The notes under the pieces were generated by a model. The model did not search any database. It was not told the origin of the DNA and was given only the letters and a program-made list of their open reading frames with translations. 64,000 nt of DNA, taken from Bacteroidota bacterium (GTDB taxonomy: Bacteria; Bacteroidota; Bacteroidia; AKYH767-A; OLB10). The position numbers and the translations under genes were made by a program. Where the stretch lies: assembly GCA_031418215.1 (NCBI GenBank), contig JANOXC010000118.1:25388-89387 (forward strand). Direction: 5' to 3'. Below, piece after piece: positions 119-42,533 of the stretch. Positions within the stretch are counted from its first letter, which is position 1. Each line of letters starts with the position of its first letter.

Positions 119-256
119 GCTTAATAGTTTAGAAGGAATGGTATCAATTAAATAGTGTAACTTATCAATTACAGCGTTTATCATAACAGTATGTTTCTGA
201 TTTGTTAACCTCAAAAGTATTTTATCAAAACAACATATTTGATAATAGCTGAATAC

Positions 257-1459
257 TTATCTTGTAAATGAAAAAAGAGATGCGCTTGAATTTTTTCTGC
301 CGGTAAAAATATCCCTTATAATTCCCGCTGCAATTATACTAAAGGTAATACCATTACCTCCATAACCAAGTGCATAATAGGTATGTGGTGTTTTATGATA
401 GGCCCCAATATAAGGCAGTGAATCAACTGTAGATCCAAACGTTCCGGCCCAGCTGAATTCAGGGATAAGCTCAATGCCTGGAAATAATTTTAAAAAATCA
501 TTTCTTAATTGTGCTGTTTTCCTTTTTATCAAGGTGTCTCTTTTTCCCGGACTGTAAAATTCTTCATCTCTTCCTCCGATTATCACCCTGTTATCATTCG
601 TGAGGCGCATATATAAATAAGGGTTTGCAGTATTCCAAATCATTACGCTTTCCTTCCAAATTGGATTTGGCTGTTGAATTTGCGCTGATGCCAATGCATA
701 GGTGGAATGAAGTGATACAATTTTCTTATCAATAAATTCCTTCAACTCATAGCCGGATGCATTAACAACTTTTTTTGCCCGGATAATAAAATTTTTGTCG
801 GTTGTAATTTTTACGCCGTTTTTCTGATAGTCAATCTTTGAGACAAAAGTCCGGTCGAAAATTTTAAGTCCTTTTGATTTACTTGCTTTGTGTAAAGCAT
901 GTGTGAACATATAAACATCCATTGTTGCCCCCTGCTCAGAAAGTATAGCGGATGGTGCATAGAATCCAAAACGCTTACGTATTTCCTCTTCCTTCAAAAG
1001 ACTAACTTCGAAACCGGCTTTTTTTCGGAAGGAAAATTCCGATTCAATAAGTTTCTTGTCTTTTTGGAAAGCAGCAAAATAAAGACTCTTTCTTTTTTCA
1101 AACTGCCTGAATTTTAATTTTTCTGAAATTTCCTGCAGTGTTTCTAAAGCTTCGGAACAAAGCCTGTATGCTTTTACAGCATTTGGCAACCCTATTTGAC
1201 CTGCCAGCTCTGATAATGGTTTATCCAGTTCGTACTGCAATAAAGAAGTGCTGGCACAGGTGCTGCCGAGGCCAATTGTCCTTCCATCTACAATAACACA
1301 ATCAATCCCTGCCTTACTCAGAAAATATCCCGTTAAAGCACCGGAAATGCCGCCTCCAATTATGGCTACCTCGGTTTTCAATGAGGTATTCAACTGGGGA
1401 TAATTTACAGGCAGCCCATTTTTTATCAGCCAATAAGGATAACCGGTTGTAAGGTCCAT
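257..1459 (-). CDS. FAD-dependent oxidoreductase (DadA/glycine-oxidase-like)
   Basis: A 400-aa ORF. The N-terminal dinucleotide-binding motif VAIIGGGISGALTGYFL matches the GxGxxG Rossmann signature, and the C-terminal GYGGNGIT motif is typical of DAO-family enzymes. Confidence 0.75.
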   Translation of the reverse strand: MDLTTGYPYWLIKNGLPVNYPQLNTSLKTEVAIIGGGISGALTGYFLSKAGIDCVIVDGRTIGLGSTCASTSLLQYELDKPLSELAGQIGLPNAVKAYRLCSEALETLQEISEKLKFRQFEKRKSLYFAAFQKDKKLIESEFSFRKKAGFEVSLLKEEEIRKRFGFYAPSAILSEQGATMDVYMFTHALHKASKSKGLKIFDRTFVSKIDYQKNGVKITTDKNFIIRAKKVVNASGYELKEFIDKKIVSLHSTYALASAQIQQPNPIWKESVMIWNTANPYLYMRLTNDNRVIIGGRDEEFYSPGKRDTLIKRKTAQLRNDFLKLFPGIELIPEFSWAGTFGSTVDSLPYIGAYHKTPHTYYALGYGGNGITFSIIAAGIIRDIFTGRKNSSASLFSFTR

Positions 1460-24301: not shown

Positions 24302-25030
24302 CGTCATTGCGATGAGCGATAACCATATTAATGTAATTGAAAAAAGATGAGCGAAGAAGCAATCCCATCATGCATACAACAAGCATCATGCACATACTTC
24401 CCAACAAAAGATTGCTTCGACATTCACTGCTTCTCAGTTCATGTCTCGCAATAACGGAATATTAGAACGTCATTGCGCCGCGCCGTCGGCAAGCCTTATG
24501 CCTCCGCGAAAGCTTTAGCAACACGCAGATGGCGGCCGATGGATGAGGGGGAATGTTGTTTCTGAAATCGAATAAGGTTGAGCGAAGAAACAATCTCATT
24601 AATAGAACCTGAGGTACCACTTACTATTCATGAGATAACCTCACTCATTCTTCGTTCGCAATGACAGTAGATGAAAATTTTAAAGTGGCAAAGTAATCCT
24701 TTCAACAAGCGAACCGTCATTGCGAGCCAATTGGACCAATATGCTCTTACGAAAAACATAAAGTGGCGAAGCAATCTTTTCAAAAGTACCCGATCTGCTA
24801 TTCATAAGATTACTTCCCTCATTCTTCCCTCGCAATGACGTTAGATGAAAATTTAAAGTGGTGTAGCAAAGCAATCCTTTCAATAATTCAACCGTCATTG
24901 CGAGCCACTTATACCAATATGCTCTTACGAAAGACTTAAAGTGGCGAAGCAATCTTTTCAATAGCACCTCTTCTTCTATTCATAAGATTGCTTCACTCGT
25001 TCCTCGCTCGCAATGATGATAGAGGTGCCT
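24302..25030. repeat. dense cluster of family A interspersed repeats (about 7-8 copies, both orientations)
   Basis: The module cgtcattgcgagc...aaagtggcgaagcaatc(t/c)tttcaa and its reverse complement (gattgcttc...gcaatgac) occur repeatedly. There is no convincing ORF here. Confidence 0.75.
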
Positions 25031-26146: not shown

Positions 26147-26609
26147 TTAATCATTCTCATCCTTTCTTTTGTATCCAACCTTTTTTCCAGGGGTACTTAA
26201 TGGCAACATAAGTTGTCTAATGGCTTCAAATATTTTATTAATTGCGTCATCATGCATAGCTAATCGGTTTTCCAATTTTTTCAGTTGAGCCGAAAGTTCT
26301 TTATGTGAATCCAGCAGTTTTCTCATTCTTACAAAAGCACGCATTATTGCAATATTTACTTCTCTTGCCCTTTTACTTTTTAGTATTCCCGGAAAGCATT
26401 GCAACCCCTTGCTCTGTAAAAGCATAAGGAAATGCCCCTCCGAACTTGCCTTTAGATGGTATCACATTTTGTGATACCAGAACACTAACTACTTTGTTTG
26501 TTAATACAAACATAAAATCCGGAGGAAAACTTTCAATGTTCCTTTTAACAGCTTGTTTCAATGCCCTGGTTTCTACGTTGTATAATTGAGCAATGTCAAA
26601 ATCAAGCAT
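26147..26609 (-). pseudogene. ORF6N-domain gene with internal frameshift
   Basis: The N-terminal piece (26373-26609: [34 protein letters not shown]...[12 protein letters not shown]) joins the next frame of 26147-26425 (...[25 protein letters not shown]...) to make an ORF6N protein of about 170 aa. The two ORFs overlap at a short homopolymer (about 26376-26392). Confidence 0.6.
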
Positions 26610-26933: not shown

Positions 26934-27175
26934 CGTCGTTGCGAGGAGTTAGCGCTTTCAGGTTTGTGACCTCGCCCCCTGCCCCTCTCCAGGGGAGAGG
27001 GGAGGTCGACTACCGATTATTCATTAACCCTTACATTAATGCGATGAGCGTGAGCTTATATTTTCTGATTGAAAAATGTTGGGCGAAGATGCAATCTGAT
27101 CAATAGCACCTTATATGTCATCATTCTGCACATTGTCTGAACTATGATTCATGTGATTATATGATTTTGCGTTAG
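26934..27175. repeat. composite interspersed repeat (families A, B and C)
   Basis: The family A core is interrupted by a GC hairpin (cccctgcccctctccaggggagaggggagg). It is then followed by ...caatagcacc...cacattgtctgaactatgattcatgtgatta. Confidence 0.65.
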
Positions 27176-27405: not shown

Positions 27406-27882
27406 CTAAATAAGTTCCTTTATTATTTTATATATATTCCCTATATGCTGATTACTTGAAGATTGCTCCAGCTCTATTTTCTCAATTTTTTTCAATAGCT
27501 CTTCATATTCCTTTATTAACCCGCGCATTTTTACAAATATTCTCATGATCTGAATATTTACTTCAATGGCCTGATCGCTGTTCAAAACACTTGAAAGCAT
27601 GGCAACCCCCTGTTCTGTGAATGCCATTGGCATATACCTGGTTCCACCCCAATTTGAGGTGCCAATTTGGTACCTCAAGATTTTCAGGTCTGCAGCACCC
27701 AATTCAAACATAAAATCTTCCGGAAACCGGGTACTATTTCTTCGCACTGCCCTTTTAAGTGATTTAGTCTCCACTCCATATAATACAGCAAGGTCAGCAT
27801 CAAGCATTACTTTTTGTTTTCGGATAATTATGATTTTGCTGAAAATATTTTCTTCAGAATAAACTGTTCTTTTAGGCATCAA
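27406..27882 (-). CDS. ORF6N-domain protein (KilA-N-related, phage anti-repressor-like), intact copy
   Basis: A 158-aa protein. The conserved N-terminal block reads KVMLDADLAVLYGVETKSLKRAVRRNSTRFPEDFMFEL...[23 protein letters not shown]. The C-terminus is a coiled-coil. Confidence 0.7.
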   Translation of the reverse strand: MMPKRTVYSEENIFSKIIIIRKQKVMLDADLAVLYGVETKSLKRAVRRNSTRFPEDFMFELGAADLKILRYQIGTSNWGGTRYMPMAFTEQGVAMLSSVLNSDQAIEVNIQIMRIFVKMRGLIKEYEELLKKIEKIELEQSSSNQHIGNIYKIIKELI

Positions 27883-28759: not shown

Positions 28760-30736
28760 TTACAAAACATTAAATCCAATCATCTCTAAGTAATTATATG
28801 TTGAATCATAGTATTCTGCTTTTCTTGTATGGTCTTCAATGTTACCTTCAGGAACAAAAATCACCATTCCTTGTCGGGCTCTAGTTAAGAGAACCCTATA
28901 AGCATTAATTAAATATTTCTTTCTTTCCGGTTGATTTATATTTTGCCATTTGCTGCCTTTGAATTCAAAAGTTTTCCAACCAACTTCAGCATATCTTAAA
29001 TCGCCATCCCATGCAACACAAGCCCAGTCAAGTTCAAGTCCCTGAACATCAAATTCAGTTGCGACATCTTCTAAATAAAATGAAGAACGAACATCATCCT
29101 TTCCATCCAAAAACCAATTCACGGGATTCATTGGGGATTTAACGTCAATTGCAAACGGTTTTAACCGCTGTGCTTGTGAAGAAACAACCATTCCATAGCG
29201 TTCACTTCCTCTTGCTTTTTCTTTCAACCAATTTTTCGCTTTAAATAAATCTCTTGTTAACACTATTGGATAGTTTGCTGAAATATTTGATAGGGTTTTT
29301 TTAGCTTTTTCAATATTCATGTCTAAAATATTTTTTATGAATAGAGAAAGGTTTTCAGCTCTGAATGAACGCATAGAAACCGAAAGGTGTAAATCAGAAT
29401 TAAATTTTACCTCTGATTTTTCTTGTAATGTTTTTATTGAATTAACAGCCGAATATTCTGAGTCAGTCAAGTTAGGTGAGATGTAAACTTCCCAATCTGA
29501 AAATTTGCTGTTAATAGCATTTAACCACTCCGATATGCCAGCTTCGCCAGTATTTATTTCTTGCCCTCCTCCAACTAAACAGACAATTACAGCCCAATCT
29601 TTGTGTCTATCAAGACAAGAAATTAAAAATTCAGGTTCAGAAAAATCAAAGTCAAGTTGATTTTTTTTCTGCTTCATGAACTTAACCGTTTGTTCTTTAT
29701 TCCAAGCCCTTTGTGCTTCATCAAAAATTGCCACATGGTCGTAAGGTGGATTAGGGTCAACAAGGTAAGCGTCTCTATAATGATGAATTATTTGTATAAA
29801 TGCCTTAACACCCTCCTTCGCTTTCCCTTTGGTTAATTTATTTCCCAGCTCTTTTTCATTCTTGACCTTATCCCTTGTTAACGCCTCTTGAAGAATAGCA
29901 ACCAAAGGTGCGTTGCCAGACAAATAGACACTAGTATTTCCTTTTTCTTTATCAAGATGTGTTGTTGCAACTTTTAACCCAACAAGAGTTTTGCCTGCAC
30001 CTGGGACTCCTGTTACAAAACAAATAATTTTTTTAGGGGTGGCTTTTGCAATACCAATTAATTCAGAAATTGCTTTTGTTGTGTCTCTTAAATTTTTTGC
30101 TGCTGCATCACTTCTTGTTATTTCATCAACTGTGTGAGTATTATAAAGAGAAATAGCTGCTTCAATTATTGTTGGTGTAGGCGAATAGCTTCCATTAGCA
30201 AACTCATCTCCATCTATTTTTTTACCATCGTTAAAAAATAACAGTGTGTTTTTTATTGCTTCATTCAAATTATCCTTGTTAGTTTTTATTGGCAATATCA
30301 AATTATCATTGTGTGATGTTGTTAGGATTTCAATAATAGAATTTTTTGATTCTGTTGCAATAAGTACTGGTGCTAAAACAATTTTATGACTTGGCTTGTG
30401 AAAATTTTTCAAGTCCAGTGCATAATCCCACACTTGTTCAATTTGGTATTGATGAAAATTATTCTCGCCTACTTTAAACTCTATTACAAAAACAACATTT
30501 TTAATAATTACAATGGCATCAACTCTCTTCCCCATTCTTGGAATAGAGAATTCAAAAAATATTACCCCTGTGTAACCATTAATTGCTTTTTTCAGAATTG
30601 GTATCTGTTGTTCCCATGATTTATTTTGGTTTGAAGTAGAATCAAATTGGTTTGACATTGTAATCAAGCCAACGATTTCCTCTGTGCTCTTTATTAAAAA
30701 AGATTCAATATTGTCCTTGAAATAGTAATTCAACAT
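28760..30736 (-). CDS. DUF2075-family nuclease-helicase (Nhi-like): N-terminal PD-(D/E)xK nuclease plus SF1-type P-loop ATPase
   Basis: A 658-aa protein. The N-terminal restriction-endonuclease-like motif is ...FFEFSIPRMGKRVDAIVIIKNVVFVIEFKVG (E...D...ExK). Walker A is ICFVTGVPGAGKTLVG and Walker B with the Q-type residue is HVAIFDEAQRAW. The C-terminal motif INAYRVLLTRARQGMVIFV equals SF1 helicase motif VI (L.TRAr). The gene is isolated in AT-rich noncoding sequence. Confidence 0.65.
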   Translation of the reverse strand: MLNYYFKDNIESFLIKSTEEIVGLITMSNQFDSTSNQNKSWEQQIPILKKAINGYTGVIFFEFSIPRMGKRVDAIVIIKNVVFVIEFKVGENNFHQYQIEQVWDYALDLKNFHKPSHKIVLAPVLIATESKNSIIEILTTSHNDNLILPIKTNKDNLNEAIKNTLLFFNDGKKIDGDEFANGSYSPTPTIIEAAISLYNTHTVDEITRSDAAAKNLRDTTKAISELIGIAKATPKKIICFVTGVPGAGKTLVGLKVATTHLDKEKGNTSVYLSGNAPLVAILQEALTRDKVKNEKELGNKLTKGKAKEGVKAFIQIIHHYRDAYLVDPNPPYDHVAIFDEAQRAWNKEQTVKFMKQKKNQLDFDFSEPEFLISCLDRHKDWAVIVCLVGGGQEINTGEAGISEWLNAINSKFSDWEVYISPNLTDSEYSAVNSIKTLQEKSEVKFNSDLHLSVSMRSFRAENLSLFIKNILDMNIEKAKKTLSNISANYPIVLTRDLFKAKNWLKEKARGSERYGMVVSSQAQRLKPFAIDVKSPMNPVNWFLDGKDDVRSSFYLEDVATEFDVQGLELDWACVAWDGDLRYAEVGWKTFEFKGSKWQNINQPERKKYLINAYRVLLTRARQGMVIFVPEGNIEDHTRKAEYYDSTYNYLEMIGFNVL

Positions 30737-31130
30737 TAATTATTCTTTAGATTATCAAATCTGGCGCATTTAAACTTCTGTTCGATTTGGTATGAACGTC
30801 AGTCATATTACTTAAGTGTACAGTACGAAATCGATAAAATCGTTGGTTGTCGGTTAAAAGGAAATGAAAACTTATAATTTCTTCCAAATATACCCAAAAA
30901 CTACCTCCAGTAAATAGATAAACGCACCACTCATCATTCACGCTTTATTATGAATAACCAGCAGCCTTAATGAACCTTAAAAACTTTTAACAGTGTTTTG
31001 AATAAAACCAACCCCCGCAAAAATTTACTTATCCCGGTTTCAAAAAAAACAACAGGGAAAGCATGCATTAAAAAAACATCCCTTCCCTGCAGTTAAACTC
31101 ATCAACAAGTCTTCATCCGTTAATAATGAA

Positions 31131-31772
31131 TCAATCCTTTTTCTCCGGCTTGTAAAAATCCCCTTCTGTATCTTCATTGTCGCGGATCTTGCTGCTGTAA
31201 GCCATCCTGGCTTGTCGTTCACTGGCAAACATTTGCTGTATGCCTTCATCGTCTTTTTGAAAGGTCATGCTGTTGTTGATGGAGATGGAAACAGCAAATT
31301 CCTCCACGGCATGGTCGGTGCCGATGTAGGTGAAGGTCCAGCGGCTTTCTTTTAATTCTTCGATGAGTTTTTTAATCGTGGCTCCGGAAAATTCACGGGA
31401 GGAGTTTTCTTCACCGTCGGTGAGGATGGTCACCAATACGTTGTAATCCCTTCGACCTTCCAGCACCTTTCGGAGTTTATTCATACTAAAACCCATGGCA
31501 TCGTATAAAGGGGTGGAGGCGTCGGGGTTGTATCGTCGCGCATCAATTTGTTCCAGCTTGCTCACGGGGTCAATGAAATGAAGCATTTTATTGCCAAGTC
31601 CGTTGAAGGAAACGAGGGAGATGAAATGTTCCTGCTCAGGAAATTGTTTTTCAATGCCTTTAATGGTCTGCACAATTTCATTGAAGCCTTTGATGATGTT
31701 TTTTTTAATGGGTTCCATCGAACCGCTTTCGTCTAAAATGATGAGGTTGTGTACTTCATGTCTGTTTTTCAT
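31131..31772 (-). CDS. von Willebrand factor type A (vWA) domain protein
   Basis: The MIDAS motif is LIILDESGSM (DxSxS), followed by downstream T and D residues (ILTDGEEN). It is about 213 aa from the internal ATG. The longer TTG-initiated ORF to 31838 is less likely. Confidence 0.7.
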   Translation of the reverse strand: MKNRHEVHNLIILDESGSMEPIKKNIIKGFNEIVQTIKGIEKQFPEQEHFISLVSFNGLGNKMLHFIDPVSKLEQIDARRYNPDASTPLYDAMGFSMNKLRKVLEGRRDYNVLVTILTDGEENSSREFSGATIKKLIEELKESRWTFTYIGTDHAVEEFAVSISINNSMTFQKDDEGIQQMFASERQARMAYSSKIRDNEDTEGDFYKPEKKD

Positions 31773-31924
31773 ACTGTTTGAATTTAAATGGTTAAAAAAT
31801 AAACTGAATGAATGTTTCCTGCAGTTGAAAAAAAGCAACAGTAAAGCAGTGCGGTAATTTAAAGAGTGGGATGAAAAAAAATCCCATTAAAAGCCCTTTT
31901 ACTAACAGTACGAAATTACAGAAA

Positions 31925-32060
31925 ATTGTGATTGACAAATAAAATGGCTGATAAATAATTAGCCAATGTTACCACATATTGGCTCCCTCTCCTTCGGAGA
32001 GGGCGGGGGGTGAGGTAATAGCACAAATCGAATCAAAGTGGTATGGGCCAATTCCACTGA
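31925..32060. repeat. family B interspersed repeat (unexpanded copy)
   Basis: The sequence ...aattagccaatgttaccacatattggctccctctccttcggagagggcggggggtgaggtaatagcac contains a hairpin ccctctcc/ggagaggg and a G7 tract. It is homologous to 35940-36215. Confidence 0.65.
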
Positions 32061-32074
32061 CAATGCAAAAAAAA

Positions 32075-33895
32075 TCAATCCTTCAACTTCATCACCTCCC
32101 AACCAAACCGTTTTCTTGCAATTGCCATGCATTCTATAAAAGTGTTTTTGGTTTTTAAAAATCCGTAACGTTCTTCCAGCATGTATTGCTCATACTTTTT
32201 CTGTTCGATGAGTTCGGAGAGTATCATCCTGATTTTTTTCGTGGCCGTTTCTTTTACCAAAGAATTAAAGTCCGTTTCTACGGAAAGGTTGCGTCCGTAA
32301 TTATCGAGTAGCTTCTCAATGTTTTCTTCATTGAACAATCCCTGTATAAGCAATGCCCAAACAAGGTTACGTGCCGAGCGTACGAAGAAATATTTATTCT
32401 CCCCGCGGCTCTCAATTTCTTTGATGGCAGCCCCGATGCGGAATTGTATTTTGTAAGCTAAAATTATTTTACGCGTGTCGGCTTTGAGAAATTCTTTCTG
32501 AAATGTTTTATCGTAAATGGCATCTTGTTCAAACACTTTTCCCATATCAGAAACCTTGTCCACCTCGCCCTGCACAGCTAAAAATGTTTGTGCCAGCTTT
32601 CTGATCTTTACTTCTTTCATCTGTTCAATACCCATCTCCCCGAAGTCGGCATCACTTAAGTTGGCAAAGGAGTTTTCCTGCCGTTCGTAGAAGATGCCGT
32701 CCTTGCGGAACTTGTCATCAAACTCCAGTTGTATCATGTCGTTGGCGCGCAGGTTCCAGGGCTCAACGGGATTTTGTTTGTTGTTGGAAATGGTAACCTG
32801 CGTCACAAATTCCTGAGAGCAGTTAGTGATGATCTTTACAATGACTTCAATCTTCTTCAGCGTCTTTTCGTAATCATTGTATCCGGGCTGCTTGCGCAAG
32901 TCGTCAATGAATCGCGATAAAGTTGTAATTGTCTGTGCGCCGTTCAACACACGCGGTTCCACAATCTTGATGTTCCCGCCTTCACCTTCCAGTTTCTCTG
33001 CAAAAAGTGTTACGCCATTATGATGAAAGGTAAAATACTCCGGACTTACTTTTTTATGGACAACAATGTCGCGCAATGATTTTTTAATGGCTTGGTTCGG
33101 CGCTAATTCATCGGTCAATCCTCCACGAATATTTTTTTCGAAGAGACGCTGTTTCATGTCGTTGTGCATCTTATACAAATCGAAGATGTGAATGAAACCC
33201 AGGCTCATTTTTTCGTTGCCTGATGCAATTTTCTTCAGCGGTGTATTGAGTGCAATGTCATACTGAAAGGTTTTTTTCGTCCTTGCTGTCTGATTAATCT
33301 TCTTCGTTTCATTGGAGATGTACTGTATGGTCAGTGTGATGTCTTTGCTGTCGAAAAACTGGTCGATAAAATGTTTTTTTGATTCCAGTTCTTCACGCAG
33401 GCTCTCCAAGACCTTACTGCTCTCGGCACTCTCGGGGTCTCCGTTAAAAACAAAACAGATGTAAACTTTGTTGATGAGGTCTTTGTATTCTTCCAGCTCC
33501 ATCTTAAGCTGTGTAGTTAGTTTGCCGGTATAGGCGGTTGAGCCATCACCGAAAATTGTTTCAATACCGTCTTTGACCAGCCGTGTGTAGGCGTCTTTAA
33601 ACAGCTCGAAGTTTTCGCCCCATTCAAAGTGGTACAGGTACAGGTTTTTGGCGCCTCTTTCGATGTAATAGGCTTCTATCCCTTCTTCATTTTTACCGAT
33701 GGAACAGTAGGGCAGTACAGCCTCCACCTTGCGTTCAAATTTATCAGCGATAAAGAGCGGAGCAAAGTAGTCTTCCTTGTGCCCATAATGCTTTGATTTG
33801 TATTTGAGGTAGGTTTCCGTTAATCTTTCAAGGGTGATGGACATGGTCTGTACGGTTGGTTGGTAAATATCAATAGAGGTTAATTCGTTTTTCAA
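32075..33895 (-). CDS. AIPR-like (abortive-infection phage-resistance family) protein, tentative
   Basis: A 606-aa protein. The central block HHNGVTLFAEK...KIVEPRVLNGAQTITTLSRFID carries an NGAQT motif that I associate with AIPR/DGQHR-type domains. The N-terminal ~280 aa and the helical C-terminal ~200 aa were not recognised. The call rests on my recollection of the family motif. Confidence 0.4.
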   Translation of the reverse strand: MKNELTSIDIYQPTVQTMSITLERLTETYLKYKSKHYGHKEDYFAPLFIADKFERKVEAVLPYCSIGKNEEGIEAYYIERGAKNLYLYHFEWGENFELFKDAYTRLVKDGIETIFGDGSTAYTGKLTTQLKMELEEYKDLINKVYICFVFNGDPESAESSKVLESLREELESKKHFIDQFFDSKDITLTIQYISNETKKINQTARTKKTFQYDIALNTPLKKIASGNEKMSLGFIHIFDLYKMHNDMKQRLFEKNIRGGLTDELAPNQAIKKSLRDIVVHKKVSPEYFTFHHNGVTLFAEKLEGEGGNIKIVEPRVLNGAQTITTLSRFIDDLRKQPGYNDYEKTLKKIEVIVKIITNCSQEFVTQVTISNNKQNPVEPWNLRANDMIQLEFDDKFRKDGIFYERQENSFANLSDADFGEMGIEQMKEVKIRKLAQTFLAVQGEVDKVSDMGKVFEQDAIYDKTFQKEFLKADTRKIILAYKIQFRIGAAIKEIESRGENKYFFVRSARNLVWALLIQGLFNEENIEKLLDNYGRNLSVETDFNSLVKETATKKIRMILSELIEQKKYEQYMLEERYGFLKTKNTFIECMAIARKRFGWEVMKLKD

Positions 33896-35723: not shown

Positions 35724-35972
35724 ATGTAGAATTAAGAATGCAGAATTAAATTCCTAAATCCATTAGGAGAACCGTAATCTACTCCCTCTCTCTGCGCCAA
35801 AGCTGGAGTTAAGGCGGCACGTTGTTGGTGTGGGGGAGGTCAAAAGCAACATCCCTTTTCCTAAATCATCCAACAAGTATAATTCACAGCCCCCCTTCTC
35901 TCATTGATATTCCCGATAGCTATTGGGAATCCGATACGGTAATTAGCCAATGATTTATTAAAGATAAATTGG

Positions 35973-36208
35973 CTCCTTCTCTGTAGGGGCGCACAGGCTC
36001 CCTCTCTGAAGGGGCGCACAGAGGCTCCTTCTCAGAAAGGATGAACAGGCTCCCTCTTTGAAGGGGCGCACAGGCTCCTTCTCTGAAAGGATGCACAGGC
36101 TCCCTCTCGGAAGGGGTGCACAGACTCCCTCTCTGAAGGGGTGCACAGGCTCCCTCTCTGAAGGGGTGCACAGGCTCCCTCTCTGAAGGAGAGGGCGGGG
36201 GGTGAGGC
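35973..36208. repeat. 25-bp tandem minisatellite (about 9 units) grown out of a family B repeat
   Basis: The unit ctccctctctgaaggggtgcacagg is repeated head-to-tail with point variants (ggggcgcacagg / aaggatgcacagg). The array ends in ctccctctctgaaggagagggcggggggtgagg. The 25-bp period is not a multiple of 3, and all three minus-strand frames are open, so the ORFs there are artefacts. Confidence 0.85.
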
Positions 36209-36339
36209 TGCGAATGTTAAATAGAACAAAAAACATAACATCTTCCCCTAATTCCACGTTAAATACCCGTTAAACACTGATCCCTGCTGCAAAAGAACTT
36301 TGTGGTATTGCTTCACATCTCACTACCTTTGTTACAAGA

Positions 36340-39300
36340 ATGAATAACAATCTCAATAATTTCCCCGAGTACTCGACATTACTTAACAAGCTTGACGAGT
36401 TTATCCGTAAGTATTATAAAAACCAACTCATCCGCGGAGGCATTTATGCCTTTACTGCCGTCTTGGCTTTTTTCCTTACGGTTACACTGCTCGAATCCTT
36501 TGCCTGGTTCAACACCGGTGTTCGTGCTGTGTTGTTTTATGCATTTTTAAGCTCGACCTTGTTTATCCTCTATAAATGGGTATTGATACCACTACGACAC
36601 CTTTACAGGATGGGAAAGATTATTTCCCATGCTGAAGCTGCTGCTATTATTGGGCAGCATTTTAGCAGTGTGAGCGATAAGTTGCTCAACACTTTACAGC
36701 TAAAAGAACAGGCTGATGCCGCCAAGGAAGATATTGAATTGGTTTATGCCGGTATCAACCAGAAGAGTGCCGAGTTAAAACCAATTTCATTCGCTTCAGC
36801 AATTGATCTTTCCGTTAATAGAAAATATTTGCGTTATGCTGCTTTGCCATTGGCCGTTTTGATGTTTGTGCTAATCGCCTCTCCTTCGTTGTTAAAGGAA
36901 AGCACATCAAGACTAATTAATCATGGTACATCTTTCGCCAAACCCGCTCCTTTCAAATTCAATATTGAAAATAAAAACCTGAAAGTTATACAGAATGAGG
37001 ATTTCCTGTTGAATGTTAAACTAATGGGCAATGAAATTCCGGAAGAGGTTTTTATCACTTACAATAACAATCAGTTTAAGCTCGATAAAGAAAACAAACT
37101 GAAGTTCACTTACACTTTCAAGAACATTCAAAAAACAACTTCGTTCAAACTCTCAGCCGATGGTTTTAGTTCCGTTGAATATATTTTGGAAGCCTTGCCC
37201 AACCCTGTGGTGACGAATTTTGAAATGGAGTTAAAATATCCTTCTTACCTCCAGAAAAAATCAGAAATCATTAAAAATACCGGAGATTTATTGGTCCCCG
37301 CCGGAACACTTGTGAAATGGAGTTTTAATACAGAAAATACGGCTACATTAAAATTGGTTTTCCTCGACACGGGATATACATTACAGGGCGATGACTCCAA
37401 AGCATTTTCGGTTTCACGCCGGATGATGAAAAACAATCAATACAGTGTGCGAACTTCCAATGCAGTGTTGCAAAGCAAGGATTCATTGCGTTACATGGTG
37501 AATGTAATACCAGATGCTTTTCCTTCTATTGATGTGGAGAAGCAGGAAGACTCTGCCTCTTACCAGCATTATTATTTTCGTGGTTTGGTTAAGGACGATT
37601 ATGGTTTCAGTAAACTGCATTTTACGTATCGTTTTGTGAAGCGCGATAGCGTGCCTAAAGACAGCAAAGAAATTTATAGTGACGAGCTTGCAGTAAGCCG
37701 CGGCGTTCAACAAGAACAATTTTTCTATTACTGGGACTTAAGTAAGATTGGTATTCATCCTGGTGATGAGGTGGAGTACTTTTTTGAAGTGTGGGACAAT
37801 GATGGTGTTACGGGGGCAAAATCGTCTCGTTCTCAATCATCAATTTATAAGGCTCCCACACTGAATGAACTGGCCAAAGACGCCGACAAGAAAAATGATG
37901 CCCTGAAGAATGATTTGTTAGCAGGAATGAAGAAGGCTAAAAAGTTGCAAAGGGAGTTAACTGATTTGCATAAAGAATTATTAAACAAGAAAACACTTGA
38001 CTACGAAGACAGAAAGAAGGTTTCTGACATCATGGAGCAACAGAAAGATTTGGAGCAACAGGTAGATGAAATCAAAAAACAAAGTCAGGAGAATTCACAA
38101 AAACAAAATGAGTTCCGCAATCCTACTGAGCAATTAGCAGAGAAGCAAAAGCAATTGCAGGAGATGTTTGATAAGATGATGTCGCCCGAAATGAAAAAAA
38201 TGGTTGAGGAGCTGCAGAAAATGCTGGCAGAAATCGATAAGTCGAAGCTGCAGGAGCAAATGGATAAGATGAAGCTTGATAATAAAGATCTTGAAAAAGA
38301 AATGGATCGCACACTTGAGCTTTTCAAGAGTATGGAGTTGGAGCAGAAGTTGAAAGAGGCTGCCGTTCAGCTTGACAAATTAGCTGAAAAGCAGGAAAAA
38401 TTAAACGAAGAGACAAATGATAAAAAATCAGATGCCGATGAGCTGCAGAAAAAACAAGATGAACTTTCGCAGGAGTTTAAAGACCTGAAGGAACAGCTCA
38501 ACGATATTGATAAAAAGAACAGCGAACTGGAGAGTCCGCAGAACCTTCCTGATATGAAGGAGGACTCCAAAACAGTGGAGAAGGAAATGCAGGATAGCAA
38601 GGAAGAATTGAGTAAAGGAAATAAATCGAAATCGGGAAAATCGCAAGAGAAGGCCGCTGATCAATTGCGACAGATGGCTGCGAAGATGAATAACCAGATT
38701 CAGAAGAATGAGGAAGAACAGGCAGAAGAAGACATGAATGCCTTGCGTGCATTGCTCGAAAACCTTTTGCATTTTTCTTTTGAACAGGAGGGATTGATGG
38801 AAGACTTAAAAACGATGGATGTAAATAATCCTCGCTTTTTAAAATTATCTCAACAGGAGCGTAAGTTGAAAGATGATGCGCGAATGCTGGAAGACTCTCT
38901 TCTCGCTTTAAGTAAGCGCGTGATGCAGATACAGCGCGCAGTGAACGAACACCTCACCGATATCAACGATAACATTGAAAAGGCTATTGATAATTTACAA
39001 GAAAGGATGGTGCCAGCAGCAAGGGTTAACCAGCAATATGTAATGACGGCAGCCAATGATTTAGCGTTGATGTTAGCGGAATCGTTGGATCAAATGCAGC
39101 AGCAGTCGAAGAGTGAAAAAGAGGGCGATGGCAAATGTAAAAAACCCGGAAAGGGAAAAGGAAAGGGAAAACCGGGGCCAACAGCGGGTGATGTGAAAAA
39201 GATGCAGGAAAAACTTTCACAGCAGCTGAAGGAAATGAAAGATAAAATGGCAAAAGAAGGTAAAGAGAAGCAGGGGGAAAAGGGGAAGGGTAATGGCAAA

Positions 39301-39735
39301 GACGGTAATGGAGGAATGAGTGAAGAGTTGGCTAAGATGGCTGCTCAACAAGAGGCCATCCGAAACGCCTTAAAGGAAATGGATTCAGAACAGGGCAAGG
39401 ACGGTGGCCAGGGAAAGATGGGCAAGACGATGCAGCAAATGGAGGAGAATGAAAAAGACATTGTTAATAAGCGCATTACTGATGCCACATTGAAGCGTCA
39501 GGAAGAAATTATGACGCGGCTTTTAGAGTCTGAAAAAGCGGAGCGCGAGCGCGATCAGGAAGAGCGGAGAGAGTCAAATGAGTCCAAAATTGATATATAC
39601 CGTAGCCCGGCCCGTTTTGAGGAATATAAGCGCCTTAAAATGCGTGAACTTGAATTGTTGAAAACCATTCCGCCATCCCTTACAACCTTCTATAAAAACT
39701 TAGTTAATTCGTACTTCCAAAGTATAGACAACTAA
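36340..39735 (+). CDS. large membrane-anchored coiled-coil protein (DUF4175-like), conserved neighbour of ybeY-mnmG
   Basis: A 1131-aa protein. It has two N-terminal transmembrane helices, about 500 aa of beta-rich sequence, then about 500 aa of K/E/Q-rich coiled-coil. A KG-rich tract (GKGKGKGKPGP) is included. Confidence 0.5.
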   Translation: MNNNLNNFPEYSTLLNKLDEFIRKYYKNQLIRGGIYAFTAVLAFFLTVTLLESFAWFNTGVRAVLFYAFLSSTLFILYKWVLIPLRHLYRMGKIISHAEAAAIIGQHFSSVSDKLLNTLQLKEQADAAKEDIELVYAGINQKSAELKPISFASAIDLSVNRKYLRYAALPLAVLMFVLIASPSLLKESTSRLINHGTSFAKPAPFKFNIENKNLKVIQNEDFLLNVKLMGNEIPEEVFITYNNNQFKLDKENKLKFTYTFKNIQKTTSFKLSADGFSSVEYILEALPNPVVTNFEMELKYPSYLQKKSEIIKNTGDLLVPAGTLVKWSFNTENTATLKLVFLDTGYTLQGDDSKAFSVSRRMMKNNQYSVRTSNAVLQSKDSLRYMVNVIPDAFPSIDVEKQEDSASYQHYYFRGLVKDDYGFSKLHFTYRFVKRDSVPKDSKEIYSDELAVSRGVQQEQFFYYWDLSKIGIHPGDEVEYFFEVWDNDGVTGAKSSRSQSSIYKAPTLNELAKDADKKNDALKNDLLAGMKKAKKLQRELTDLHKELLNKKTLDYEDRKKVSDIMEQQKDLEQQVDEIKKQSQENSQKQNEFRNPTEQLAEKQKQLQEMFDKMMSPEMKKMVEELQKMLAEIDKSKLQEQMDKMKLDNKDLEKEMDRTLELFKSMELEQKLKEAAVQLDKLAEKQEKLNEETNDKKSDADELQKKQDELSQEFKDLKEQLNDIDKKNSELESPQNLPDMKEDSKTVEKEMQDSKEELSKGNKSKSGKSQEKAADQLRQMAAKMNNQIQKNEEEQAEEDMNALRALLENLLHFSFEQEGLMEDLKTMDVNNPRFLKLSQQERKLKDDARMLEDSLLALSKRVMQIQRAVNEHLTDINDNIEKAIDNLQERMVPAARVNQQYVMTAANDLALMLAESLDQMQQQSKSEKEGDGKCKKPGKGKGKGKPGPTAGDVKKMQEKLSQQLKEMKDKMAKEGKEKQGEKGKGNGKDGNGGMSEELAKMAAQQEAIRNALKEMDSEQGKDGGQGKMGKTMQQMEENEKDIVNKRITDATLKRQEEIMTRLLESEKAERERDQEERRESNESKIDIYRSPARFEEYKRLKMRELELLKTIPPSLTTFYKNLVNSYFQSIDN

Positions 39736-39738
39736 GCC

Positions 39739-40179
39739 GTGCCAGCAACAATGAACACAGAAAAACAGACCTATAGCATGCAAATCGTCTCTCAGCCGGA
39801 GAGTATTAACCTGGTAGAGAAACTGATTGATGAAATAAAATCCGAATACAGTATTCATGAAGAGTGCTACGGCAATATGTTGGTTGCCGTTACAGAGGCT
39901 GTTAATAACGCCATTCAACACGGCAATAAGTATGATCCTGAAAAGATGGTTCACGTTTCCTATGAAATAGAGCCTGACCAGATAGCATTTACTATTAGTG
40001 ATGAAGGAACCGGTTTTGATTACATCAACCTGCCGGACCCAACAGATCCCGAGAACCTTGAAAAGCCGACGGGGCGTGGTGTGTTTTTAATGAAACACCT
40101 TGCCGATCAAATTATCTTTTCGGAGAATGGAAAGGTGGTAGAGCTATACTTTAAGACTTCGGGACATATTGCAAGCTGA
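39739..40179 (+). CDS. HATPase_c-type ATP-binding protein (anti-sigma regulatory factor / RsbW-like)
   Basis: A 146-aa protein. The Bergerat-fold N box reads VAVTEAVNNAIQHGN. The G1/G2 boxes read DEGTGFD...GRGVFLM. Confidence 0.6.
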   Translation: MPATMNTEKQTYSMQIVSQPESINLVEKLIDEIKSEYSIHEECYGNMLVAVTEAVNNAIQHGNKYDPEKMVHVSYEIEPDQIAFTISDEGTGFDYINLPDPTDPENLEKPTGRGVFLMKHLADQIIFSENGKVVELYFKTSGHIAS

Positions 40180-40193
40180 CTGCAAGCCTGGCT

Positions 40194-40616
40194 GTGATAA
40201 ATTTTTTTAACGAAGACATTATATATATAGTTCGCAACAAGACCGCTGTGCGTAATTGGATTGAAAAAGCCATTCGCAAAGAAGGGTACTATTTACAGGA
40301 AATAAATTATATATATTGCAGTGATGCTCATCTGAAAAAGATGAATGAAAAATATTTACATCATCGCACCTATACCGACATCATCACTTTTGATTTGTCG
40401 GAAAAGAAAAAAGACCTTTTGGGAGAAATCTATGTCAGCATCGAACGTGTGCGTGAAAATGCCGTTTTGTTTAAGGTGCCATTGCGTGATGAACTGCATC
40501 GTGTGATGATACACGGTGTATTGCACCTCTGCGGATATAAAGACAAGTCGCCTGCTGATGTTAAGCGAATGCGAAACCGGGAAGATTATTATTTATCTTT
40601 GCGCAGCTTTTTGTAA
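40194..40616 (+). CDS. ybeY: rRNA maturation endoribonuclease YbeY
   Basis: A 140-aa protein. The metal-binding motif HGVLHLCGYKD matches H..LH..GYDH. Its position just upstream of mnmG is conserved in Bacteroidota. Confidence 0.85.
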   Translation: MINFFNEDIIYIVRNKTAVRNWIEKAIRKEGYYLQEINYIYCSDAHLKKMNEKYLHHRTYTDIITFDLSEKKKDLLGEIYVSIERVRENAVLFKVPLRDELHRVMIHGVLHLCGYKDKSPADVKRMRNREDYYLSLRSFL

Positions 40617-40661
40617 ATCAATGTGATACAGAATTTGTGTCGCCTAAACAGTTGAATATTA

Positions 40662-42533
40662 ATGATATATCCTGAGTACGATGTAATTGTTGTTGGAGCT
40701 GGTCACGCCGGATGTGAGGCTGCTGCTGCTGCTGCAAACATGGGTTCAAAAGTTCTTTTGGTAACCATGAATATGCAGACCATAGCCCAGATGAGCTGCA
40801 ATCCTGCCATGGGTGGTATTGCTAAAGGTCAGATTGTCAGGGAGATAGATGCTTTAGGTGGTTATTCCGGGATCATAAGCGATAAAAGCATGATTCAGTT
40901 CCGGATGCTGAACCGTTCAAAGGGACCAGCCATGTGGAGTCCTCGAACACAAAACGACAGGATGCTTTTTGCAACCGAATGGCGCAACATGCTGGAGCAA
41001 ACGCCCAATATTGATTTTTGGCAGGATATGGTTTCGGGCCTGCTCATTAAAGATGGTCGGCTTTCGGGTGTTGTAACAGGAATGGGTGTTGAGTTCAAAT
41101 CAAAAGCAGTTATCCTGACCAATGGCACCTTCTTAAACGGCCTTATACATATAGGTGAGAAAAAATTTGGTGGAGGACGCACAGGGGAAAAAGCAGCCAC
41201 CGGTATTACCGAACAGCTTGTTGCTTTAGGATTTGAAAGCGGGCGCATGAAAACAGGAACACCTCCTCGTTTAGATGGACGTTCGTTGGATTACTCAAAA
41301 ATGGAAGAACAAAAGGGTGATGAAGTGCCCGGTAAATTCTCTTTTGCCAATACGGAGATACTGAAAGAGCAAAAAAGCTGCTTTATTACCTATACCAATC
41401 AGGCCGTTCATGATGTGTTAAAAACAGGGTTTGAGCAAAGCCCGATGTTTACCGGAAGAATTCAAGGGATTGGCCCAAGATATTGCCCTTCTATTGAAGA
41501 TAAGATCAATCGTTTTGCCGAAAGAGATCGCCATCAGCTTTTTGTAGAGCCTGAGGGATGGAATACTGTGGAAATTTATCTAAATGGATTTTCTTCTTCT
41601 TTACCAGAAGAAGTTCAATACAAAGCCTTGCGTTTAATCCCCGGTTTGGAAAACTGCAAGATGTTTCGTCCTGGTTATGCAATTGAGTATGATTATTTCC
41701 CTCCAATGCAGCTGAACCACACTTTGGAAACCAAGCTTGTAGAAAACCTGTATTTCGCCGGACAAATTAATGGAACAACAGGCTATGAAGAGGCTGCTTG
41801 TCAAGGATTGATGGCCGGCATTAATGCCCATCGAAAAATAAACGAGCTTGATCCGGTAATTTTAACTCGTTCTGATGCATATATAGGAGTATTGATAGAC
41901 GACCTCATCACCAAGGGAACAGAAGAGCCTTATCGCATGTTTACCTCTCGTGCTGAGTTTCGCACTTTGTTGAGGCAAGATAATGCTGACCTGCGATTAA
42001 CGCCGCTTGGGTATGAAATCGGTTTGGCTTCTAAAGATCGATTTGATAATGTGGTGGTGAAGGAACAAAAAACCGTCAACATCATCGAATACTTAAAAAG
42101 AACGAGTATTACGCCGGAAGAAATCAATGATTGGCTTGTTTCACGTGAAACAGATCCAATCAATCAGCGTCAGCGGTTGAATCAATTACTACTTCGCCCA
42201 CAAGTGTTTTTACAGGAAATGGTAAATGCAATTCCGTCACTGAAGACCGAATTTGAAAGAATGGAAGTTACAAATGAAATTCTGGAGCAGGTAGAGATAC
42301 AGGTTAAGTATGAGAGCTATATTGAAAAGGAAAATGACATGGTAGAAAAGGTGTCAAGACTAGAAAATGTCCTCATCCACGATTTTGTTGATTATGCTAA
42401 GGTCTCTTCTTTATCCAATGAGGCCCGTCAAAAGCTCATCAAAGTAAGGCCCCGTACATTAGGTCAGGCGGCTAGAATTAGCGGAGTAAGTCCTTCTGAT
42501 ATTTCTGTGTTGCTGATTCATTTAAATCGGTAA
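40662..42533 (+). CDS. mnmG: tRNA uridine 5-carboxymethylaminomethyl modification enzyme MnmG (GidA)
   Basis: A 623-aa protein. The FAD-binding N-terminus is YDVIVVGAGHAGCEAA. Strongly conserved MnmG blocks follow (MSCNPAMGGIAKG, GIGPRYCPSIEDK, FAGQINGTTGYEEAA) and the C-terminal GISPSD. Confidence 0.95.
   Translation: MIYPEYDVIVVGAGHAGCEAAAAAANMGSKVLLVTMNMQTIAQMSCNPAMGGIAKGQIVREIDALGGYSGIISDKSMIQFRMLNRSKGPAMWSPRTQNDRMLFATEWRNMLEQTPNIDFWQDMVSGLLIKDGRLSGVVTGMGVEFKSKAVILTNGTFLNGLIHIGEKKFGGGRTGEKAATGITEQLVALGFESGRMKTGTPPRLDGRSLDYSKMEEQKGDEVPGKFSFANTEILKEQKSCFITYTNQAVHDVLKTGFEQSPMFTGRIQGIGPRYCPSIEDKINRFAERDRHQLFVEPEGWNTVEIYLNGFSSSLPEEVQYKALRLIPGLENCKMFRPGYAIEYDYFPPMQLNHTLETKLVENLYFAGQINGTTGYEEAACQGLMAGINAHRKINELDPVILTRSDAYIGVLIDDLITKGTEEPYRMFTSRAEFRTLLRQDNADLRLTPLGYEIGLASKDRFDNVVVKEQKTVNIIEYLKRTSITPEEINDWLVSRETDPINQRQRLNQLLLRPQVFLQEMVNAIPSLKTEFERMEVTNEILEQVEIQVKYESYIEKENDMVEKVSRLENVLIHDFVDYAKVSSLSNEARQKLIKVRPRTLGQAARISGVSPSDISVLLIHLNR

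Follow-up and report, generated by a model that had tools for sequence, protein, structure and literature searches.

We analysed two neighbouring minus-strand genes within a 64-kb stretch of a Bacteroidota chromosome (hereafter the window), one encoding an AIPR-family, AbiU1-like protein and the other a small stand-alone vWA protein (Table 1). Mechanical ORF calling had assigned the larger gene 606 aa (32075-33895, minus strand, start TTG), and an earlier reading made without database searches (the sequence-only reading) had adopted this extent. The ORF is real, but its length was revised, since every homologue starts at the position of ATG 33844 and the 589-aa protein is identical to database protein P0001, which also begins at that ATG. 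The segment between the TTG and the ATG is therefore probably untranslated.

Table 1. Features of the AIPR-vWA locus, in window coordinates.
Feature	Position	Strand	Details
Stand-alone small vWA protein	31131..31772	-	213 aa; Pfam VWA E=1.6e-9, PHROG 7371 E=2e-32
MIDAS DxSxS, D14-E-S16-G-S18	31719..31733	-	read from the sequence
Spacer, AIPR stop to vWA start	31773..32074	.	302 bp
REP-like G+C-rich hairpin element GGCTCCCTCTCCTTCGGAGAGGGCGGGGGGTGAGG	31981..32015	+	second copy at 36173-36207
AIPR-family (AbiU1-like) CDS	32075..33844	-	589 aa from ATG at 33844
Pfam AIPR domain match	32261..33142	-	residues 252-545 of the 606-aa ORF; model positions 1-278 of 308
RVLNGAQTITTLSRF motif in AIPR core	32909..32953	-	read from the sequence; flagged in the sequence-only reading
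N-terminal motif	33617..33688	-	consensus nnDyGIDay...NLYLYQFKWS; here E54, E58, H73, E75, G77
ORF extension upstream to TTG	33845..33895	-	probably untranslated; every homologue starts at the ATG 33844 position

Profile searches placed the larger gene in the AIPR family. The protein matched Pfam AIPR (PF10592; E=4.2e-25, 89.5 bits vs a gathering cut-off of 25), the PADLOC AbiU model (PDLC02357; E=2e-29, residues 122-549 against model positions 123-506 of 537) and PHROG 1841, 'Abi alpha-like' (E=2e-31, coverage from residue 52), while an NCBIfam search gave no match. A total of 119 homologues aligned with it end to end (coverage 99-100%, identity 43-82%); NCBI names homologues 'AIPR family protein', and those of Sorangium, Caenarcaniphilales and Nitrososphaerota are 43-49% identical to it, with 99-100% of the length aligned. 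The AIPR assignment, which the sequence-only reading had based on motifs, was thus confirmed. Its companion suggestion of a DGQHR/DndB-type protein was not, as Pfam and NCBIfam searches at E<=0.01 returned no DndB (PF14072, TIGR03187) or DGQHR match, nor was a DUF262 profile matched. The same reading had left both termini unassigned. The claim fails for the C-terminal ~200 aa, where the Pfam AIPR match reaches residue 545 of 606; the N-terminal 250 aa do lack a Pfam family, but they belong to a shared full-length architecture and are covered by PHROG 1841 from residue 52. Its profile matches make the larger gene an unexceptional representative of AIPR/AbiU1, a known family whose proteins are putative phage-resistance factors.

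The subfamily, of ~590 aa, is conserved along its whole length and has one fixed architecture. An alpha/beta domain bearing a D...QxK-like motif forms the N-terminus and is followed by a small domain rich in beta structure, then by the AIPR core, and the C-terminal domain is helical. The NGAQT block to which the sequence-only reading had drawn attention is present as RVLNGAQTITTLSRF, and L301-N-G-A-Q305 was invariant in an alignment of 100 homologues (residue numbers refer to the 590-aa translation of 32075-33847). Further invariant residues of the AIPR domain in these 100 sequences were N-I-R241, H-N-G278, E-P298, N356/Q358 and Y387/R389/Q390. Searching the N- and C-terminal parts separately against Pfam at E<=10 yielded noise alone.

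In the literature, the AIPR core is described as having a nuclease or NTP-binding fold of the ParB superfamily, and Makarova et al. 2013 placed AIPR in one ParB-superfamily group with DndB-N and COG1479/DUF262 (PMC3632139). We compared the subfamily with known folds using its alignment and a confident AF2 model (pLDDT 89). Foldseek of the full-length model against PDB returned nothing at E<0.09; the weak matches included ParB N-domains, the best relevant one being ParB-N 5k5d (E=0.3). The hhalign comparison with four DUF262 N-domains set LNGAQT opposite the DGQQR of LIDGQQRVTA at a non-significant E=0.16, and PDB sequences searched with the AIPR alignment as a profile yielded 0 matches at E<=1. 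For the window protein, the ParB-like fold of the core is putative, with values of E=0.3 and E=0.16 from our own fold and profile comparisons. A HEPN domain has been stated for AIPR N-termini (PMC3506569); the HEPN Rx4-6H motif was absent, as no two columns of the 100 sequences combined R>=70% with H>=70% at the required distance.

Examination of conserved columns (at least 90% conserved) revealed a localized change in the N-terminal motif. The window protein departs from 6 of 143 such columns, against a family median of 4 departures per protein, and five of the six fall within residues 54-77 (D54E, D58E, Q73H, K75E and S77G relative to the family consensus). In the AF2 model, this motif lies on two adjacent strands (59-63 and 68-74); the family consensus has D58 on the first strand and Q73-x-K75 on the second, vs E58 and H73-x-E75 in the window copy. 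Foldseek of the N-terminal 235-aa model gave PD-(D/E)xK enzymes (Exo5, Nt.BspD6I, Can2 and Avs4) among its weak matches, all at E>0.07 and none significant. From the motif, the strand pattern and these non-significant fold matches, we infer that the N-terminal domain may be PD-(D/E)xK-like, and the putative site is probably altered or inactive in the window copy. These substitutions raise the question of a decaying or retired gene, in which an intact ORF has lost its N-terminal catalytic-type site and either confers no defence or retains DNA- or nucleotide-binding alone. Five nearly invariant residues of a single motif are indeed replaced, whereas P0002, an 82%-identical orthologue, keeps the consensus YQFKWS, and the divergence and composition of the AIPR gene are core-like. 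We nevertheless regard retirement as unlikely: the ORF is intact, the remainder of the protein is fully conserved with a departure count near the family median, metal binding could survive the D-to-E changes, which are conservative, and the role of the motif is itself putative.

The downstream gene was likewise reported in the sequence-only reading, as a 213-aa same-strand vWA protein with an intact MIDAS, and this description held. Pfam VWA (PF00092) matched with 38.7 bits vs a cut-off of 23.8, and D14, S16, S18, T87 and D119 were invariant in 25 homologues. The search gave ~3,000 homologues, the best 120 of which share 68-100% identity and are spread over Bacteroidota orders; JGI labels homologues YegL-like or ChlD-like. 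A profile search of the vWA alignment against PDB sequences gave 0 matches at E<=0.01, and no PADLOC model matched the protein. The genomic contexts of the vWA loci are varied and mainly housekeeping, and the GC3 of the gene follows that of the host genome at five other loci, for which reasons we read it as a resident gene. Its product is a cytoplasmic vWA/MIDAS protein that stands alone, and the family to which it belongs is highly conserved across Bacteroidota.

At 18 of 61 loci, a WYL+WCX regulator lies upstream of the vWA gene, in some cases accompanied by HD_4 and MBL-fold genes. WYL and vWA were considered as a conserved pair and rejected: the linked vWA proteins form one subclade (86% identical to one another, 73% to the others), and the arrangement may be plain synteny. 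Additionally, jumbo, Streptomyces and Gordonia phages encode vWA relatives at 28-37% identity, and a Sphingobacteriales homologue sits in a transposase-flanked defence-island block with Ssp-like phosphorothioation genes. Together with the PHROG 7371 match, these contexts would suit a gene with a stress or defence role of its own, gathering in variable regions, with its adjacency to AIPR arising from island dynamics and not from partnership. We consider this improbable for the vWA gene, given that the WYL-linked loci come from one subclade, the other contexts are mainly housekeeping, GC3 is ameliorated to each host and PADLOC gives no match. It is similarly doubtful that the ~590-aa AIPR subfamily is a self-contained immune nuclease, with a PD-(D/E)xK-like effector gated by a ParB-like core and a window copy whose D...QxK site, rewritten to E...HxE under continued constraint on the remaining protein, marks a naturally retargeted or regulatory variant and not a dead gene, and that, separately, the small vWA family is an unrecognised effector common to Bacteroidota and large phages, placed beside a WYL regulator in one clade.

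The sequence-only reading had joined the two genes into one defence module, and had itself named a lack of adjacency in other genomes as grounds for rejecting that proposal. Using tblastn and HMM searches, we found vWA relatives within 6 kb of an AIPR gene at 0 of 80 loci from other species, and AIPR relatives near a vWA gene at 0 of 94 other loci; by that reading's own criterion, the module is thus refuted as a conserved linkage. The closest relative of each gene has other neighbours. The closest AIPR orthologue (82% aa) lies at a syntenic locus, L177, which shares synteny with window positions 36229-40783; here the homology is restricted to the AIPR CDS (33846-32069), ends at 32069 and is followed by a gene for a secreted protein. 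The closest vWA relative, at locus L093 (98% identical, 94% nt), has NmrA-like and F420-oxidoreductase-like genes upstream, and its homology with the window extends over the vWA-proximal ~200 bp of the spacer (31747-31967), stopping near 31967. The vWA gene therefore has its own conserved upstream region.

The spacer measures 302 bp to the vWA ATG, or 236 bp if the ORF is extended to its upstream TTG, in keeping with the gap of about 300 bp given before. No intrinsic terminator was called on its minus strand, so that read-through co-transcription is possible; a promoter and terminator consensus scan, which is ill-suited to Bacteroidota promoters, gave counts at the shuffled level. A two-gene defence operon, with the vWA protein as sensor or adaptor for an AIPR effector, could draw on this arrangement (same strand, 302 bp apart, no terminator called), on the similarly raised GC3 of both genes, on the adjoining candidate-defence genes PDC-S41 and PDC-S05, and on the one vWA homologue that adjoins an Ssp-like block in a defence island. 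We consider such an operon very improbable in view of the complete lack of co-occurrence at the 80 AIPR and 94 vWA loci, the different flanks of the nearest orthologues with homology breaking at gene boundaries, the vWA gene's own ~200-bp upstream region and the missing PADLOC model match for vWA.

Across the 80 different-species AIPR loci, no neighbouring gene family was common beyond clade synteny. Immediate neighbours were heterogeneous, with a minority of defence genes (GmrSD_N/HEC-05, PD-T4-2_A, NsnA, DrmC and methyltransferases). Because the subfamily lacks a conserved partner gene, its members most likely work as single proteins. In the window, the vWA gene is flanked by AIPR and a DUF2075 helicase gene, and PADLOC marked DUF2075 (PDC-S41) and ORF6N (PDC-S05) as candidate-defence genes of the region. 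The description of a defence island is accordingly fair for the AIPR gene as regards a variable or defence-rich neighbourhood, but base composition contradicts the idea of both genes as AT-rich island genes. Divergence between the window and L177 was equal for AIPR and core genes (77% vs 76% nt), and the AIPR gene appears to have been inherited vertically between the two organisms, which is atypical for fast-turnover defence genes. Taken together, the locus very probably holds two independent genes, an AbiU1-like single-protein AIPR unit and an unrelated stand-alone vWA gene, which have come to lie side by side by local accident, in a part of the chromosome that is variable.

Abortion or restriction of phage infection has been reported genetically for lactococcal AbiU1. 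The window AIPR protein resembles AbiU1 of Lactococcus lactis in its Pfam AIPR, PADLOC AbiU and PHROG 1841 matches, in its similar size (~590 aa) and in being encoded by one gene without an obligatory partner. It differs in coming from a Bacteroidota chromosome and not a lactococcal plasmid, in being known here from sequence, and in its changed N-terminal motif. We propose that the AIPR core may bind nucleic acid or a nucleotide and control an activity of nuclease type by which phage infection would be aborted or restricted, as with AbiU1. AIPR genes are described as often linked to R-M systems (PMC3506569, PMC2292703), whereas no R-M genes adjoin the window copy. DndB/DGQHR and DUF262 proteins (GmrS, SspE N-domain) share the ParB-superfamily group with AIPR (PMC3632139), but the AIPR pentapeptide is NGAQT and not DGQ(H/Q)R, and an HNH/DUF1524 partner domain is absent from the window protein. 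The window vWA protein has the complete MIDAS of vWA defence and stress systems (TerY-PP2C-kinase, vWA-MoxR and ternary vWA systems); unlike in those systems, it is not accompanied by PP2C, a kinase, AAA+ MoxR or any other recurrent partner, and over 94 loci the family showed no recurrent partner bar the clade-restricted WYL regulator. A TerY-type triad, with adjacent PP2C and Ser/Thr kinase genes, was absent from the window, and PP2C adjoins the vWA gene at only one inspected locus (L089).

On these grounds, the AIPR gene should be annotated as a single-gene AbiU1-like defence candidate and not as one of two components in a new system with a vWA protein. Correct annotation keeps a false 'new two-gene system' out of catalogues; the significance is otherwise small. 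AIPR proteins are still mechanistically uncharacterised, and the subfamily model, together with a natural variant at the putative active site, could guide mutagenesis.

Besides the hairpin element GGCTCCCTCTCCTTCGGAGAGGGCGGGGGGTGAGG in the spacer, the window contains just one further copy (0 expected by chance). The spacer element sits at the end point of the homology that the window shares with L093. A mobile 4.2-kb cassette of AIPR, SCO4226-like and pirin genes bounded by the two REP-like copies was considered but was unsupported, because L177 carries AIPR at the same locus without the pirin and SCO4226-like genes and with homology in the AIPR CDS only.

Base composition ran counter to the AT-rich, island-like codon usage that had been attributed to both genes. 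The AIPR gene has a GC content of 0.42 and a GC3 of 0.52, and the vWA gene 0.44 and 0.54, compared with a mean GC3 of 0.38 (sd 0.06) for the 33 window ORFs of at least 200 aa. Both GC3 values are unusually high for the window; it is the DUF2075 gene next to them that stands out as AT-rich (GC3 0.24).

The sequence-only reading had taken the AIPR and vWA genes for a two-gene defence module, a proposal that would fall if the two genes were never neighbours elsewhere. When their linkage was assessed in both directions, they were neighbours at none of 80 other AIPR loci and none of 94 vWA loci, which refuted the module by this criterion. Using one genome per species, we found 136 loci with an AIPR relative and retrieved the best 80, together with as much as 6 kb of flanking sequence per side. 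Around the AIPR genes of these best 80 loci, tblastn detected no vWA protein, and a vWA-family HMM run at a threshold as lax as E ≤ 1 matched none of the 1,877 ORFs in the flanks. Clustering of the flanking ORFs from the 80 loci revealed no common family beyond synteny in one group of related Flavobacteriales MAGs. The 130 immediate AIPR neighbours were heterogeneous, with a minority of defence genes (GmrSD_N/HEC-05 in 4, PD-T4-2_A in 3, NsnA in 3, plus DrmC and methyltransferases) and the rest housekeeping. In the opposite direction, AIPR relatives were found by tblastn or HMM at 0 of 94 vWA loci (80 metagenomic and 14 from look-ups). On annotated long contigs, the vWA gene lay beside G6PD and photolyase, aldo-keto reductase and PP2C, dCMP deaminase and GlnRS, or acyl-CoA dehydrogenase and DapB, and in one Sphingobacteriales lineage beside a transposase-flanked Ssp-like block. 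Separately, DUF262/GmrSD-type genes with an IDGQQR motif directly adjoined AIPR in a few distant species (see table), placing a second ParB-like defence gene next to AIPR.

The decisive evidence on the pairing came from the closest relatives of the two genes. L177, the locus of an 82% identical AIPR orthologue, was syntenic with window positions 36229-40783 (76% nt identity; a 1131-aa gene, a HATPase gene, ybeY and mnmG), and its nucleotide homology around AIPR covered exactly the CDS (33846-32069, 77%), with a secreted-protein gene rather than vWA downstream. L093, the locus of a vWA protein 98% identical to that of the window (94% nt), carried NmrA-like and F420-oxidoreductase-like genes upstream of vWA; its homology to the window comprised vWA plus some 200 bp upstream of it and stopped at about 31967, coinciding with a 35-nt G+C-rich hairpin element. 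The differing neighbours and the homology break indicate that the AIPR-vWA adjacency is local and accidental and that the vWA gene is unrelated to AIPR, and retention of the conserved region upstream of vWA argues for a promoter of its own. L081, a contig from a metagenome that matched the window at 98.8% identity, mapped to 30737-31854. One of its ends fell immediately ahead of the DUF2075 start codon and the other a short way upstream of vWA; these are the two boundaries of the vWA unit, as expected if both vWA flanks vary between strains.

The AIPR stop codon and the vWA ATG are separated by 302 bp; the previously reported 237-bp gap is measured to the TTG where the extended vWA ORF starts, not to the ATG. 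No intrinsic terminator was detected in this spacer, so read-through may occur. The hairpin element (GGCTCCCTCTCnnnnGGAGAGGGCGGGGGGTGAGG) occurs in exactly two copies in the window, in direct orientation, each preceded by the shared motif TAATTAGCCAATG...ATTGGCT, with the AIPR, SCO4226-like and pirin genes lying between the two copies. The element, probably a REP/MITE-like repeat, gives rise to spurious ORFs (35920-36257).

The small protein had been read correctly as a vWA protein with an intact MIDAS. Its Pfam VWA match scored 38.7 bits (cut-off 23.8), and D14-x-S16-x-S18, T87 and D119 were invariant in 25 homologues; the MIDAS is therefore complete. The search yielded about 3,000 homologues; the top 120 (68-100% identical) belonged to Chitinophagales, Sphingobacteriales, Cytophagales, Flavobacteriales and Prevotellaceae, and GC3 of the gene tracked each host genome. 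The vWA gene shows the pattern of a stand-alone gene of long residence under strong constraint. The protein matched PHROG 7371, and distant relatives (28-37% identity) were present in jumbo, Streptomyces and Gordonia phages; a profile of the vWA alignment searched against PDB sequences returned no solved structure or named function.

A WYL+WCX regulator was encoded upstream of vWA on the same strand in 18 of the 61 loci with enough upstream sequence, but the WYL-linked loci formed one vWA subclade (86% identity within versus 73% to the rest). In this subclade (L100, L118, L125, L127, L128, L135, L136, L147, L157, L163, L165, L168, L173, L175, L176), the 301-304-aa regulator gene lay 75-1900 bp from vWA, sometimes accompanied by a 90-aa ORF, an HD_4 phosphohydrolase gene and a 415-aa MBL-fold gene; these loci could represent a WYL-controlled cassette. 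In Sphingobacteriales (L082-L087, 4108-12580), a 68%-identical vWA gene sat inside a conserved block of DDE transposase, vWA, DUF4007, BrxC/PglY-like ATPase, PAPS-reductase and second transposase genes, which resembles SspBCD and had been inserted into no fewer than four distinct chromosomal settings, among them positions beside GmrSD, HEPN and EcoRV R-M genes. At L093 (2330-2830), about 55 nt covering the vWA 5' end and adjoining upstream sequence (ending ...atgaaaaacagacatgaagtacacaa) were duplicated, with the copies about 400 bp apart and unrelated sequence between them, which looks like a small insertion with target duplication at the vWA start codon.

The AIPR identity, proposed from a motif in the sequence-only reading, was confirmed by a Pfam AIPR (PF10592) match of 89.5 bits (gathering score 25; E = 4e-25) spanning residues 252-545 of the 606-aa ORF. 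The PADLOC AbiU model (E = 2e-29, residues 122-549) and PHROG 1841, 'Abi alpha-like abortive infection' (E = 2e-31, residues 52-547), also matched, and DndB/DGQHR or DUF262 profiles gave no match in Pfam and NCBIfam searches. The NGAQT-containing block (RVLNGAQTITTLSRF) was present as claimed, with L-N-G-A-Q invariant in a 100-homologue alignment. The C-terminal ~200 aa had been called unassigned, which is mistaken, as the Pfam match extends as far as residue 545 out of 606. No Pfam family covers the N-terminal ~250 aa, yet they are conserved end to end in homologues and are not a lineage-specific appendage. The best 119 homologues aligned end to end at 43-82% identity and came from Bacteroidota, Myxococcota, Planctomycetota, Leptospira, Acidobacteriota and some archaea. 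All homologues have a start that corresponds to the ATG at 33844, and an identical database protein (P0001) has 589 aa, indicating that the true product is almost certainly the 589-aa protein of 32075-33844. With this protein the known AIPR/AbiU1 family gains a member, whose gene stands singly within a variable region.

A confident AlphaFold2 model built on 100 homologues (mean pLDDT 89, pTM 0.85) divided the AIPR protein into four parts (see table). AbiU1/AIPR/COG1479 has been described as containing a ParB-superfamily nuclease domain that reportedly occurs in many cases in fusion with other nucleases and is frequently R-M-linked (PMC3632139, PMC3506569, PMC2292703). In the N-terminal domain, (N/D)D-x-G-I-D on one strand is followed by N-L-Y-L-Y-Q-F-K-W-S on the strand after it; this motif is nearly invariant, and its pattern is similar to that of D...QxK-type PD-(D/E)xK sites. 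Because Foldseek matches of the isolated domain (including Exo5, Nt.BspD6I, Can2, Avs4 and arenavirus endonucleases) were weak and non-significant and a Pfam search found nothing, the domain is one that we infer to be PD-(D/E)xK-like. The window protein deviated in 6 of 143 columns conserved in at least 90% of the other 99 sequences, and five of these deviations (D54E, D58E, Q73H, K75E, S77G) fell within residues 54-77. The number of deviations is ordinary (family median 4), but their clustering in a putative active-site motif is not, and the 82%-identical orthologue retained the consensus; the putative site may have been either retired or remodelled in the window lineage. This altered motif is the sole unusual point. 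As a single-protein system, AIPR would bind nucleic acid or nucleotide through its core, and this binding would license a nuclease-type activity by which infection is restricted or aborted; the details of this mechanism are tentative and rather doubtful. That AIPR is a defence protein at all is somewhat probable, given its family membership and the partial defence-island context.

Both genes had been described as island-like and AT-rich, and the reverse was found: AIPR (GC 0.42, GC3 0.52) and vWA (GC 0.44, GC3 0.54) were GC3-rich outliers against the window (GC 0.38; mean GC3 0.38, sd 0.06, in 33 ORFs of at least 200 aa). The two share this raised GC3 despite unrelated histories, and the L093 vWA copy showed a similar excess (0.54 versus 0.38-0.40 in its neighbours). 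The region's real AT-rich outlier was the DUF2075 gene beside vWA (GC 0.33, GC3 0.24).

Coordinates of the features (window positions unless a locus or residues are given)
Feature	Position	Strand	Details
vWA ORF, extended	31131-31838	-	mechanical ORF list
vWA CDS	31131-31772	-	internal ATG at 31772, 213 aa
AIPR ORF, mechanical call	32075-33895	-	606 aa, TTG start
Hairpin element, copy 1	31981-32015		35 nt
Hairpin element, copy 2, and array	35971-36207		tandem array of degenerate hairpin units (25 nt x 8.7), with this copy at its end
Diverged hairpin copy	26970-26984	-	
AIPR model part 1	residues 1-165		N-terminal alpha/beta domain (AlphaFold2)
AIPR model part 2	residues 170-220		beta-rich segment (AlphaFold2)
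AIPR model part 3	residues ~240-420		alpha/beta AIPR core (AlphaFold2)
AIPR model part 4	C-terminal		helical domain (AlphaFold2)
DUF262/GmrSD-type genes beside AIPR	L001 7979-9766; L016 7813-9555; L060 952-2748; L030 4338-5438; L079 2194-2544		
Schlafen-group-3/DUF2075 helicase	28760-30736	-	658 aa; PADLOC candidate PDC-S41 almost end to end, E = 8e-286
ORF6N-domain protein, intact	27406-27882	-	PADLOC PDC-S05, E = 3e-56
Second ORF6N paralogue	26147-26609	-	1.2 kb off; two overlapping ORFs, 78 and 92 aa
Tandem repeat	24624-25023		178 bp x 2.3 copies, 83% matches, internal inverted repeats

The variable region around AIPR also holds the DUF2075/PDC-S41 and ORF6N/PDC-S05 genes. Across a 46-nt segment the two ORF6N paralogues are about 72% similar at the nucleotide level, and the splitting of the second into two overlapping ORFs suggests a frameshifted pseudogene. 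The 178-bp repeat sits between DnaJ-like and TPR lipoprotein genes.
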